Numbered from the stretch's first letter, positions 21,947 to 30,341 are shown. The stretch: DNA of 64,000 bases from Escherichia virus TH57 (MT446422.1), one strand, 5' to 3'. A program made the numbers and translations. Notes: a model not told the origin generated them from the sequence alone.

Positions 21947-21958
21947 AATATTTTAAAA

Positions 21959-21978
21959 GGGGCTTACAGCCCCTTTTT
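21959..21978 (+). terminator. rho-independent terminator after gene 41
   Basis: GGGGC-TTACA-GCCCC plus T5. Confidence 0.75.
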
Positions 21979-21991
21979 CTTATGTTATAAT
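21962..21991 (+). promoter_or_regulatory. early promoter overlapping the terminator (PeSL-like)
   Basis: -35 GCTTACA is the terminator loop, 17-nt spacer, TATAAT 21986-21991. Leader CCTATCAACTACTGGAGAATAAA-ATG. Confidence 0.65.
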
Positions 21992-22017
21992 GACCCTATC
22001 AACTACTGGAGAATAAA

Positions 22018-22335
22018 ATGAAAACTATTGATTGCAAAGCGGAATACAAAGTTTATTATCATGGCTCAAGCTCTAATGCTGGAATCCAAAATATGCTTTG
22101 CCCTCCTGATGCAACTGGTGTTCTGTCAGAAGTTGGGCGCAAGAAAAATTTAGGGCGTGTGTTTTTTACTGAAGATATTGGTTTGGCCCGTATCTATGCA
22201 GGAAGAGCAGCTCGCTCGTATGGAGGAGAACCCCGTCTTTATCGTGTGATTGCACCTGTTGACGTGGTTTGTTTAAATGATACTAAAGGTGCTACAGTTT
22301 ATCACGCTGACTGGGCCTTCTGTGAGGAAATCTAA
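22018..22335 (+). CDS. truncated ADP-ribosyltransferase-fold protein (Mod/Arr-like mini-ART)
   Basis: 105 aa. YYHGS...(29 aa)...GRVFFTEDIGLARIYAG parallels LYRGV...(22 aa)...GRITSFTEDYGIARDFAA of the Mod-type ART at 29063 in this window, with Arg->His and Ser->Phe at motif positions. Ends before the ExE region. Has its own early promoter. Confidence 0.45.
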   Translation: MKTIDCKAEYKVYYHGSSSNAGIQNMLCPPDATGVLSEVGRKKNLGRVFFTEDIGLARIYAGRAARSYGGEPRLYRVIAPVDVVCLNDTKGATVYHADWAFCEEI

Positions 22336-22548
22336 ATGTATAAATTAGAGAACGTAGTGTTTATTGGTTGGTTTGAAAATGGTAATATGTTTACCAAAGA
22401 AACTGCACTAGATGTTAGCGACCAAAATATGATTGAATGGGTCACAGTGCAGTATGCAGAAGTGAATAATGCGCTGGTGAAAGCCTTTGTTAATGACAAT
22501 AAAGTTTTTGAATATGATTATCGTATCCACTTATCTGAGGAAATCTAA
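22336..22548 (+). CDS. dmd: Dmd (discriminator of mRNA degradation; antitoxin against RnlA/LsoA)
   Basis: 70 aa. VVFIGWFENGNMFTKE...YAEVNNALVKAFVNDNKV matches recalled T4 Dmd (VVFMGWFKNESMFTKE...YAEVNKALVKAFIDDKKV). Adjacent to 41, as T4 61.5. Confidence 0.8.
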   Translation: MYKLENVVFIGWFENGNMFTKETALDVSDQNMIEWVTVQYAEVNNALVKAFVNDNKVFEYDYRIHLSEEI

Positions 22549-22890
22549 ATGGCTTTTAATCCAGAAGACCGCGTAAAAGTAACAATCAAAGTGAGTGCTG
22601 TTGGTGTACCATCTTTTGAACGTTCTAGCATGTTCCACCCAGCAGGTATTCACTGGTATGTCCAGAAGACTGCTGATAACTATAATGCACTGGTTGAAGC
22701 TTTTGTTGATGACAAGCTAATTCATAAAGTAGACATGCGTAAGGGTACTGCATTGCGTAATCTGATTTTGACCGTTGAAGCTCAACTGGTAAATGAAGAA
22801 ATCTGCCTTACTGATATTGAAGCAGCTCTTCATATTGCGCGTGCTGAATATTACAACTTGACTGGTTTTTCAGTTGAAGGCGAAAAATAA
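22549..22890 (+). CDS. Dmd-like paralog (113 aa), position of T4 61.4
   Basis: ADNYNALVEAFVDDKLIHKVDMR parallels AEVNNALVKAFVNDNKVFEYDYR of the preceding gene. The identical 16-nt junction TGAGGAAATCTAAATG precedes both genes. Confidence 0.55.
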   Translation: MAFNPEDRVKVTIKVSAVGVPSFERSSMFHPAGIHWYVQKTADNYNALVEAFVDDKLIHKVDMRKGTALRNLILTVEAQLVNEEICLTDIEAALHIARAEYYNLTGFSVEGEK

Positions 22891-22920
22891 GTGTACAACA
22901 AAGGGATAATGCTGTATATT
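22891..22920 (+). promoter_or_regulatory. early promoter (sp unit)
   Basis: GTGTACA 22891-22897, 17-nt spacer, TATATT 22915-22920. Hairpin GGGATAAT/ATTATCCC 22903-22925 spans the -10. Confidence 0.6.
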
Positions 22921-22948
22921 ATCCCTATCAACTACTGAGGAGATTGAA

Positions 22949-23242
22949 ATGAAAAAGTTATTAATTGCAGCAATTCTTACCGTAGCATCATGTGGTACAG
23001 CTCCAGTTACTGCTGGGCTTGATAAAGACCTTTGTGAGTGGTCTATGACCGCTGACCAGACTGATGTTGAACATCAGATTTATGCTGATATCATGAACAT
23101 AACTAAACGTGACCGTCCTGATATGGTTAAAGAAGTGTCTGACCAACTGGCTTCTGGTGACGTTATGCAGTATAACTATGTTCTGTATTGCGATGCTTCA
23201 TTCGACAACAGCAAAATTGTTCAATGGGTTACAGGTGAATAA
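22949..23242 (+). CDS. sp: Spackle (periplasmic inhibitor of gp5 lysozyme; superinfection exclusion)
   Basis: 97 aa, as in T4 Sp. Signal peptide. DKDLCEWSMTADQTDVE...VMQYNYVLYCD matches recalled T4 61.3. Confidence 0.8.
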   Translation: MKKLLIAAILTVASCGTAPVTAGLDKDLCEWSMTADQTDVEHQIYADIMNITKRDRPDMVKEVSDQLASGDVMQYNYVLYCDASFDNSKIVQWVTGE

Positions 23243-23243
23243 A

Positions 23244-23681
23244 ATGATTAACAGAAATTTGGTTATCAAAAAACTTCGCTGTAAAAATCCAAATGCGCAA
23301 GCATACAGAGTGTTTTGGAGCGACGAGATTCAATATCTGGGTTATTTTCTTGTTGACAGTGATAATAGAATTACGTTTGCTCATAAGCTTCTTAACAAAG
23401 AATTAAACCATTGGCAAGAACTTATTGCAGTCAAGTCTAAATTATTTTCATGCAATGCAATGCACCAATTGGTTTATTTTTTCGCTGATGGTATTCCTGA
23501 CAAGGTTGAGTTTGAAGGGTTTGAATTTAAAGACATCAATCCAGACAATGAATTGAATAATGATGTTGTTAATATGGGTATCCCTGGTAAGTACATCAAA
23601 AACAGTCTTTTGAAAATTCTGGAAAATCCTGTTTATTCAGTTGACGACCAAATTTTTAATGCCTTTATGAAGCGAGATTAA
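23244..23681 (+). CDS. hypothetical protein (145 aa) with DDQIFNAFMKR tail
   Basis: ATG 23244 just after the sp stop (the track ORF extends back over sp). The C-terminal 12 aa are shared with the next ORF. Position of T4 61.2/61.1. Confidence 0.6.
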   Translation: MINRNLVIKKLRCKNPNAQAYRVFWSDEIQYLGYFLVDSDNRITFAHKLLNKELNHWQELIAVKSKLFSCNAMHQLVYFFADGIPDKVEFEGFEFKDINPDNELNNDVVNMGIPGKYIKNSLLKILENPVYSVDDQIFNAFMKRD

Positions 23682-23682
23682 T

Positions 23683-24039
23683 ATGAGTTATTATAATTTT
23701 CTGAATTTTGAACTGGCCAGCAATAATGATGGTAATGCTCGTTATGAATTTCGTGAGCCTCGGTTTAATCAGGCGATTGGTTATATTATCGTTAAAGATG
23801 ATGTTATCATAAAGGCTCGCTCATTTATGGTAATGGATGGACCTTATGAAGATACTCGTGGATACCCATTTGATAAAAAGAATGTGCGCGATTGCGCAAT
23901 CTGGATAACTGGGAACCCTGAAATTGGGGTCATGATATCTACTGAAGCGAATGACATTCTGGAAGGGGTAGCCAAAGCTCAAGAACCGCCTACTGATATT
24001 GATGACCAGATTTTTAATGCCTTCATGAAGCGAGGTTAA
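23683..24039 (+). CDS. hypothetical protein (118 aa) with DDQIFNAFMKR tail
   Basis: ORF track. C-terminus IDDQIFNAFMKRG versus VDDQIFNAFMKRD in the upstream ORF. The 43-nt junctions are about 88 percent identical. Confidence 0.6.
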   Translation: MSYYNFLNFELASNNDGNARYEFREPRFNQAIGYIIVKDDVIIKARSFMVMDGPYEDTRGYPFDKKNVRDCAIWITGNPEIGVMISTEANDILEGVAKAQEPPTDIDDQIFNAFMKRG

Positions 24040-24040
24040 T

Positions 24041-24262
24041 ATGTTTGTTTTGACCCAATTCTCTAAAGCAATATATAGTTACTCTTGCCAGTGGGAAGTC
24101 TTTATTGATACTCCTTCGCCTAAGTATGGTGTTTTTGGACGAGTAACTACTCAAGCTTATGTTGCACGACCGACTAAACGTCAGATTCGTAAACTTAAAA
24201 AGGCACATCGTCAATTGATTAAAAGAAGGGAACAATATGAGTGCAATGTGTACGGGCTCTAA
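24041..24262 (+). CDS. hypothetical basic protein (73 aa), RPTK-tail family
   Basis: ORF track. YVARPTKRQIRKLKKAHRQ resembles YTRPTKKMIRQFKRLHR of ORF 433..609. Confidence 0.55.
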   Translation: MFVLTQFSKAIYSYSCQWEVFIDTPSPKYGVFGRVTTQAYVARPTKRQIRKLKKAHRQLIKRREQYECNVYGL

Positions 24263-30282: not shown

Positions 30283-30341
30283 CCAAAGACCTTAGAACCA
30301 TTATACACAGTAAAAATAAAAGCGTTAAAGGTGAAAAAGTA

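Follow-up and report, generated by a model that had tools for sequence, protein, structure and literature searches.

What kind of gene directly follows the antitoxin gene dmd in Escherichia virus TH57, and could it encode a second inhibitor with a target of its own? Dmd, the product of gene 61.5 of phage T4 (Pfam PF17587), is an antitoxin with which the phage blocks two HEPN RNase toxins, RnlA and LsoA. To our knowledge, few other phage proteins are known to act as direct plugs of bacterial toxins, and Dmd has so far been an isolated single-domain family limited to T-even phages. We analysed 64,000 nucleotides (nt) of TH57 (MT446422.1; hereafter the window, in which all coordinates count from the first letter). 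The window is T4-type and, in this region, about 95% identical to Gaprivervirus-type phages (VR20, SP18, TH15, and relatives). A first-pass annotation had proposed that the open reading frame (ORF) behind dmd, here called ORF2, is a diverged paralogue of dmd, that both genes are preceded by an identical 16-nt junction, and that the layout reflects a tandem duplication or a cassette insertion. No description of a Dmd-like paralogue was found in the literature searched. The genes dmd, tifA, and adfA define an "anti-toxin–antitoxin (anti-TA) island" with proven anti-toxin roles, and other genes of this island have been proposed as anti-toxin candidates (PMC9391042). Lying beside dmd in an island with TifA and AdfA, ORF2 is a concrete candidate for a new anti-toxin specificity.

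ORF2 carries a diverged Dmd-like domain

ORF2 is a real, selected, two-domain accessory gene. Both ORFs had been placed correctly (Table 1), and the ORF2 product of 113 amino acids (aa) matched phrog_23762, a family with unknown function, over its full length (E = 1.9e-64; residues 4–113 on profile positions 1–110 of 110). Between the window and VR20 the gene shows eight synonymous and two nonsynonymous codon changes, the same ratio as dmd, and it is under purifying selection. VR7 and VR25 retain a homologue with 62% identity. Fifteen phage records contain ORF2, with no annotation beyond "hypothetical". When 1.84 billion representative proteins were searched exhaustively with HMMER, the matches were the ORF2 type, the 62%-identical VR7 type (two clusters), and proteins of 50–55 aa that matched residues ~68–113. 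A word-index homologue search retrieved only the cluster of ORF2 itself, and nothing for its C-terminal part. A further HMMER match, the 620-aa FG-GAP-like repeat protein P0005, was spurious, as it aligned only on "KTADNYN", and the AbiEii match of a PADLOC scan (E = 0.0045) was weak and judged meaningless.

The segment NALV(K/E)AFV(N/D)D, previously seen in Dmd and ORF2, is indeed shared, and the similarity of the two proteins extends well beyond this 12-residue patch in pairwise and profile alignments. BLASTP aligned ORF2 with the Dmd of the window over 58 columns (E = 3e-6) and with residues 4–59 of T4 Dmd (E = 4e-8). ORF2 also matched the PHROG Dmd profile (E = 8.8e-6), and hhalign of the ORF2 family alignment against 16 Dmd sequences gave a probability of 90% (E = 1.7e-6). 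The PHROG search also gave weak matches to phrog_24669 and phrog_6532, examples of more distant Dmd-like proteins. The only chains matched in a PDB sequence search with ORF2 were two Dmd entries.

A first AlphaFold2 (AF2) model of ORF2 (predicted local distance difference test score, pLDDT, 81.9) showed a beta-beta-alpha-beta-beta domain followed by a helical hairpin, and superposed on Dmd. Because its multiple sequence alignment (MSA) contained Dmd, and the result was hence circular, the prediction was repeated with sequences of the ORF2 family and of its C-terminal module only. The topology of this Dmd-free model was unchanged (pLDDT 84.8). In a Foldseek search of the Dmd-free model against the PDB, the only significant matches were three Dmd crystal chains (5I8J_A, 5I8J_B, and 5HY3_B; E about 1e-4), with TM scores of 0.87–0.94 (normalised to Dmd) and root-mean-square deviations of 0.9–1.7 Å; the next match had E > 0.4. 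Residues ~1–65 of ORF2 are thus a real, distant relative of Dmd with a predicted Dmd fold, and the proposal that the second gene is diverged and Dmd-like was borne out by sequence, profile, and predicted fold for these N-terminal ~65 residues.

We then compared the domain with the invariant or near-invariant columns of the Dmd family. Ten of these 38 columns are kept in both ORF2 homologues (M1, W36, A42, A47, V49, A51, F52, V53, D62, and R64). The Dmd motifs GW, NGN, and TKE and the D-rich loop are replaced or deleted, the deletion of the TKE...D loop removing nine residues, and two charge reversals (K49 to E and E59 to K) are conserved in both ORF2 homologues. ORF2 seems to have kept the core of the Dmd fold and to have replaced nearly all Dmd-specific surface residues, as judged by family invariance and not by mapped contacts. 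ORF2 and Dmd hence share detectable homology, the same (predicted) beta-beta-alpha-beta-beta fold, the core W...A..A.V.AFV...D.R, and a common location in one early operon of one genomic island. They differ in that Dmd is a single-domain protein of 60–70 aa, whereas ORF2 has 113 aa and two domains, the second an added C-terminal helical hairpin, and in that ORF2 stays below the Pfam threshold for Dmd, with 28 of the 38 invariant positions not conserved across its family, the loop deleted, and two charges reversed.

The C-terminal part of ORF2 is a separate module

The Dmd-like part of ORF2 is limited to its first ~65 residues. The C-terminal 48 residues, which the first-pass annotation did not mention, form a separate module with helices at 67–82 and 88–105 in both AF2 models. 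Homologues of 50–55 aa exist as free-standing proteins (P0003, P0004, P0006, and ESCO10_00268, at L004:1989-2141 of ESCO10), and phAPEC8 gp225 and phrog_27940 have the module at their C-terminus; the N-terminus of gp225 is unrelated to Dmd and coiled-coil-like. By tblastn, the C module was found in ~70 Phapecoctavirus records. All these proteins are homologous to ORF2 residues ~66–113 at 45–67% identity, and in all of them the module is C-terminal and ends with S(V/I)EGEK-stop. They differ from ORF2 in lacking a Dmd-like domain, standing alone or joined to an unrelated N-terminus, and a function is not known for any of them.

The 50-aa C-module gene of ESCO10 occupies the same slot as ORF2, just upstream of sp, where it follows a 46-aa ORF with a CxxC motif. 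Other free-standing copies lie in small-gene arrays of phage contigs of 135–142 kb without dmd. One of these, P0004, lies in such an array of a 135-kb phage contig (L076, ENA ERZ27235435 k119_17901; 1-159, 2501-2665), ~2.3 kb downstream of the anti-Gabija gene Gad2 (PF26128). There is a weak hint that the C module travels in anti-defence neighbourhoods. The start of P0004, M-S-K-A-T-A-L, aligns with M63-R64-K65-G66-T67-A68-L69 of ORF2, directly after the D-x-R of the Dmd core, and this is the pattern expected from an in-frame fusion of two adjacent genes.

In the GenBank record of ESCO10 the labels at this locus (L004 1645-2141) are misleading: "zinc ribbon domain-containing protein" stands for dmd, "cef modifier of suppressor tRNAs" for the 50-aa gene of the C module, and "modifier of transcription" for sp.

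ORF2 may be a toxin inhibitor with a specificity of its own

The following picture of ORF2 is inferred as regards toxin inhibition, the toxin targeted, what the C module does, and the sequence in which the evolutionary events took place. Its most likely function, which we propose tentatively and at somewhat less than an even chance, is that of an early-expressed toxin inhibitor with a specificity other than that of Dmd. ORF2 would be transcribed from the early promoter upstream of phrog_2110 and translated by re-initiation or coupling at the stop/Shine-Dalgarno/ATG junction behind dmd. The protein would consist of a diverged Dmd-fold domain (residues ~9–65) fused in frame, at the end of the Dmd core (D-x-R), to the helical hairpin of ~48 residues, which travels as a small gene of its own in other large coliphages. 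Like Dmd, the beta-beta-alpha-beta-beta domain would be a protein that plugs a host toxin stoichiometrically, and the hairpin might add contacts or oligomerisation. Because the fold core is kept and nearly all Dmd-specific surface residues appear to be replaced, the most plausible target would be a variant of the RnlA/LsoA-type HEPN RNases, or another toxin, that canonical Dmd leaves active. The gene may have originated by an old duplication or the acquisition of a dmd-like gene, followed by fusion to a downstream small gene. It would now be one of several interchangeable cassettes between dmd and sp, exchanged or deleted by recombination at short junction motifs, and the identical 16-mer would be one such motif and no remnant of a duplication.

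A bolder form of this proposal, which we regard as possible and rather doubtful, is that ORF2 is a "Dmd2" that neutralises a toxin beyond the reach of canonical Dmd, its hairpin being a portable add-on grafted onto different inhibitor heads. If this is true, the Dmd fold would serve more than one purpose, as an inhibitor scaffold that diversifies. ORF2 would also be a natural example of inhibitor diversification, in which a gene is duplicated or acquired, domains fuse, and cassettes are swapped at short junction motifs, within the scope of a rare gene in a well-known hypervariable region.

Several observations weigh against toxin inhibition. The case for it is one of homology only. ORF2 is very rare, given its 15 phage records and two clusters among 1.84 billion representative proteins, and close relatives such as SP18 do without it. 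Its match to Pfam Dmd covers only residues 34–64 and reaches 19.1 bits (E = 1.7e-3), below the 27-bit gathering threshold, and the VR7 homologue gave no Pfam Dmd match at E ≤ 1. The fold match may reflect AlphaFold's memory of the Dmd crystal structures, and only six sequences were in the MSA of the Dmd-free control. Because most of the residues that are invariant in true Dmd are lost from ORF2, the N-terminal domain may be a mere scaffold, of which only the stable fold was kept. And because the C module occurs without a Dmd domain, being fused to a non-Dmd N-terminus in phAPEC8 and stand-alone in phages without dmd, the activity of ORF2 could reside in the C module and be unrelated to RnlA-type toxins.

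The main rival explanation takes up this line. Either the Dmd scaffold was re-used to bind another host factor or RNA, or the C-terminal hairpin is the functional part and the N-terminal domain only targets or stabilises it; we consider this a serious possibility on the unlikely side. It would account for the 28 of 38 Dmd-invariant positions that are not conserved across the ORF2 family, and for a C module that is the better conserved and more widely spread half of the protein, free-standing in ESCO10, P0003, P0004, and P0006, fused in phAPEC8 gp225, and present in phages without dmd. It fits less well with the position of ORF2 directly behind dmd, with which it would be co-transcribed, in an island with three proven anti-toxin genes. 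Moreover, the retained Dmd residues include the surface-exposed polar D62, R64, and W36, and not the hydrophobic core alone.

The 16-nt junction is a translational signal and no duplication scar

We next turn to the repeat that had suggested a tandem duplication. The two junctions are identical as described: TGAGGAAATCTAAATG occurs exactly in the window only at the start of dmd and at the start of ORF2 (Table 1), and because the bases flanking both copies differ on either side, the repeat is exactly 16 nt long. The coding assignment also holds, as GAG GAA ATC TAA supplies the ...EEI-stop of the upstream protein (FCEEI of the phrog_2110 protein and LSEEI of Dmd) and is followed by the Shine-Dalgarno sequence and the ATG; GAGG sits 8 nt ahead of the ATG in each copy.

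Allowing up to three mismatches, the window contains 12 matches to the 16-mer against 1.25 expected. All of them lie on the plus strand and 11 of the 12 end in ATG, which argues that the 16-mer is a generic Shine-Dalgarno/start context. A 16-nt repeat alone is not exceptional either, since 64 maximal exact repeats with a length of 14 nt or more, most of them recurrent regulatory motifs, were counted in the window. What is non-random is the presence of two copies at consecutive junctions, 213 nt apart. A survey, which the first-pass annotation had suggested for related genomes, found the 16-mer at many unrelated junctions: it occurs in 64 IMG/VR stretches, mostly as single copies at unrelated ...EEI-stop-ATG junctions of unrelated phages. 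This is the outcome that the first-pass annotation had named as refuting its reading of the junction.

Among the fetched relatives with phrog_2110, the exact 16-mer always joins phrog_2110 to the next gene, even in L068, which lacks dmd. A second copy lies 213 nt downstream and ahead of ORF2 in the window and VR20; 204 nt downstream and ahead of a zinc-ribbon ORF in L007, L008, L009, L014, and L056; and 195 nt downstream, behind a dmd allele that has diverged and encodes 64 aa, and once more ahead of the zinc-ribbon ORF, in L016, L036, and L065. This zinc-ribbon gene behind dmd encodes 46 aa and is unrelated to ORF2. The junction before the VR7 homologue of ORF2 has decayed (TGAGGAAACAAAATGA), and the ESCO10 version matches at 15 of 16 positions. 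The 16-mer is a conserved generic translational (stop/Shine-Dalgarno/start) junction and gives no evidence of duplication: because unrelated phages and the zinc-ribbon junctions carry the same 16-mer, it is no duplication scar.

In L068 (IMGVR_UViG_2706795394_000001, minus strand, ~position 984) the order is phrog_2110, the 16-mer, a gene for a 188-aa protein with a signal-peptide-like N-terminal sequence, and then directly sp. Within ORF2 itself, TGAAGAAATCT (22794-22804) encodes NEEIC, a conserved motif of the C module, and is a 10/11 match to the first 11 nt of the 16-mer; this likeness may be a coincidence or provide extra microhomology for recombination. A derivation of the EEI tails of Dmd from this NEEIC sequence was considered and found no supporting evidence.

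That dmd was recently duplicated in tandem, with the 16-mer as the end of the repeat unit and the second copy diverging into a new antitoxin, is in our view very improbable. Two exact 16-mers at 213-nt spacing do bracket dmd, the downstream gene does begin with a Dmd-like domain, and T4 readily amplifies dmd-tifA in tandem via microhomology (PMC9391042). However, the N-terminal domain of ORF2 is no closer to its own neighbour (35% identity) than to any other Dmd (a flat 33–38%), and T4 Dmd scores better. In their DNA, the similarity between dmd and ORF2 is confined to a 34-nt patch (29 of 34 nt identical), the remainder being near background, and within the patch three of the eight codons for identical residues differ synonymously. 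The same figures led us to reject a recent gene conversion between dmd and ORF2. The paralogy of ORF2 and Dmd is old, because the identity to all Dmds is flat and the synonymous sites of the patch have diverged. In addition, the 62%-identical VR7 homologue, behind its decayed junction, makes the family older than the split of these phages, and the exact 16-mer stands before the unrelated zinc-ribbon gene after three different dmd alleles as well as at unrelated junctions. A recent duplication is largely refuted; an ancient one is a possible origin and belongs to the best explanation. Of the two origins first proposed, the recent tandem duplication marked by the 16-mer was not upheld, whereas the cassette idea agrees with a gene that is present or absent relative to SP18, with boundaries on stop/Shine-Dalgarno/start motifs.

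The tight stop/Shine-Dalgarno/start junction and the shared operon would also suit a partner or modulator of Dmd, which would form hetero-oligomers through the shared fold at a ratio fixed by translational coupling. We give this explanation very little weight: Dmd works alone in T4 and in relatives without ORF2 such as SP18, and no co-variation between Dmd alleles and ORF2 is evident beyond the short tail.

ORF2 is distinct from TifA

TifA is an RNA-binding inhibitor of the type III toxin ToxN and belongs to the Pfam family DUF7279. ORF2 lies in the position of T4 gene 61.4, which the first-pass annotation correctly identified as TifA (PMC9391042, PMC10853763). In TifA, a conserved PT motif caps a basic C-terminal helix (PMC10853763). 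No relationship of ORF2 to this protein was found: ORF2 gave no BLASTP alignment with T4 TifA at E ≤ 100 and no DUF7279 match (T4 TifA itself matches with E = 2.3e-20), and it has no PT motif with a basic cluster and no RPTKRQIR basic helix. The window contains a bona fide tifA homologue elsewhere (Table 1), annotated in VR20 and VR7 as "similar to T4 gp61.4", and VR7 has the ORF2 homologue next to a TifA-like gene, as two separate genes. ORF2 and TifA are alike only in their position directly behind dmd (the T4 order) and their size class, both being small early accessory proteins of the same island; they differ in sequence, in predicted architecture, and in the PT motif and basic helix. That ORF2 is the local equivalent of TifA, an idea that position alone favours, is the least credible of the explanations considered, and ORF2 is not TifA. 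An annotation by position would mislabel ORF2 as TifA, with the tifA homologue 1.5 kb downstream.

Wherever the locus of a Gaprivervirus/Dhakavirus-type relative was read far enough, the 73-aa tifA-family gene (DUF7279) is present and highly conserved. In several relatives a second TifA-like gene, diverged and 79 or 98 aa long, lies right behind dmd (L003:2821-3117 and L007:3346-3585), which makes two tifA paralogues per genome.

The operon and the variable slot between dmd and sp

The features of the locus are collected in Table 1.

Table 1. Features around ORF2 in the window
Feature	Position	Strand	Description and evidence
Stem-loop and promoter	21955..21991	+	Stem-loop overlapping a sigma-70-like early promoter, CTTACA-17-TATAAT, then CCCTATCAACTACTGGAG leader; promoter/terminator scan
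phrog_2110 gene	22018..22335	+	105 aa, function not known, first gene of the operon; PHROG E = 1.3e-58
16-mer junction, copy 1	22323..22338	+	EEI-stop, GAGG Shine-Dalgarno, ATG of dmd; sequence read
dmd	22336..22548	+	70 aa; Pfam Dmd PF17587, 72.6 bits, E = 3.3e-20
16-mer junction, copy 2	22536..22551	+	EEI-stop of dmd, Shine-Dalgarno, ATG of ORF2; sequence read
ORF2	22549..22890	+	113 aa, directly after dmd
ORF2 N-terminal domain	22549..22743	+	Residues 1–65, diverged Dmd fold (predicted; beta-beta-alpha-beta-beta), TKE...D loop missing
ORF2 C module	22744..22890	+	Residues 66–113, predicted helical hairpin, ...ALRNLILTVE...EEICLTDIE.AL..AR.EYY.LTG.SVEGEK-stop
Right slot boundary	22879..22926	+	GAAAAATAAGTGTACAAC, then stem-loop and promoter-like element before sp; same in SP18, VR7, VR20 whatever gene upstream
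Promoter-like stem-loop	22892..22926	+	Ahead of sp; promoter/terminator scan
sp (spackle)	22949..23242	+	
tifA (T4 61.4) homologue	24041..24262	+	73 aa, RPTKRQIRKLKK basic helix; BLASTP vs T4 TifA E = 1e-13; Pfam DUF7279 E = 3.3e-20

The gene upstream of ORF2 encodes a bona fide homologue of the Dmd antitoxin. It exceeds the Pfam gathering threshold and matches over its full length (residues 4–63 on profile positions 3–59 of 60), and it is 57% identical to T4 Dmd (E = 5e-23). The lineage-specific tail IHLSEEI follows a core whose last residue is R63; such tails vary in the Dmd alignment. All 17 Dmd homologues found are 63–70 aa long.

The genes phrog_2110, dmd, and ORF2 abut without gaps, and the next promoter-like element is at 22892. 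They look like one early operon, because a promoter with a stem-loop precedes them and the next promoter-like stem-loop precedes sp; the first of these elements is likely the start of the transcription unit. Its CCCTATCAACTACTGGAG leader is repeated at 22923 and elsewhere in the window. The phrog_2110 protein, which always ends with FCEEI-stop inside the 16-mer, carries the motif ...VYYHGSSS... and gave no Pfam match and no PDB sequence match. Its gene is a conserved upstream neighbour of dmd in those Gaprivervirus/Dhakavirus-type relatives that were examined, is absent from T4, and is a further anti-defence candidate.

Elements of this kind recur between genes of the window (21955-22020 and 22884-22951, with related motifs at 30334, 33734, 43717, 47710, 29640, and 44345). 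They have a left edge AAAAA(T/G)(A)AGTGTACA, a stem-loop over a sigma-70-like promoter, and a leader CCCTATCAACTACTG(G)AG...ATG. Similar cassettes, of the promoter-early stem-loop (PeSL) type, were reportedly described in T4-type phages by Arbiol, Comeau, and Krisch.

The slot between dmd and sp is a shuffling hotspot. It holds nothing in SP18, ORF2 in the window and VR20, the ORF2 homologue and a TifA-like gene in VR7 and VR25, the zinc-ribbon ORF and the C module in ESCO10, and the zinc-ribbon ORF and a TifA-like gene in L007, L008, L009, L016, and L036; its contents differ in JS98-like phages too. The right edge of the slot is conserved as (G)AAAATAAGTGT(GT)ACAAC with stem-loop and promoter. 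The insertion or deletion (indel) that separates the window from SP18 spans 342 nt, the length of one gene, and is flanked by GAAATCTAAATG and GAAAAATAAGTG. T4 recombines at microhomologies of 6–10 bp flanking dmd-tifA, with amplification and deletion as outcomes (PMC9391042), and the SP18 indel is compatible with such microhomology-mediated recombination. The tail of SP18 dmd is chimeric, its TCT resembling the tail of dmd and its GAAAAATAAGTG being the same as the end of ORF2, a pattern that fits a deletion in SP18 or an insertion in the window. Because the same right-hand motif also follows the VR7 TifA-like gene, it may simply belong to the intergenic element. The slot resembles other cases of shuffling in hyperplastic regions of T4-type phages in being variable and bounded by short motifs (stop/Shine-Dalgarno/ATG on the left; AAAATAAGTGTACAAC, stem-loop, and promoter on the right). 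It differs from PeSL-type shuffling in that its left boundary is a translational junction within an operon and not a promoter cassette, and recombination is read here from sequences alone.

A comparable arrangement was seen downstream of sp. AdfA is an inhibitor of DarT, and the slot of its gene (T4 61.2) holds two ORFs in the window, of 145 aa (23244-23681, phrog_8539) and 118 aa (23683-24039, phrog_4122). With each other and with T4 AdfA they share only the C-terminal tail (S/D)(I/V)DDQIFNAFM(K/N)R (BLASTP E = 1e-5 and 5e-5 over 13–15 residues), a pattern suggestive of a further instance, within this island, of a conserved tail that carries different "heads".

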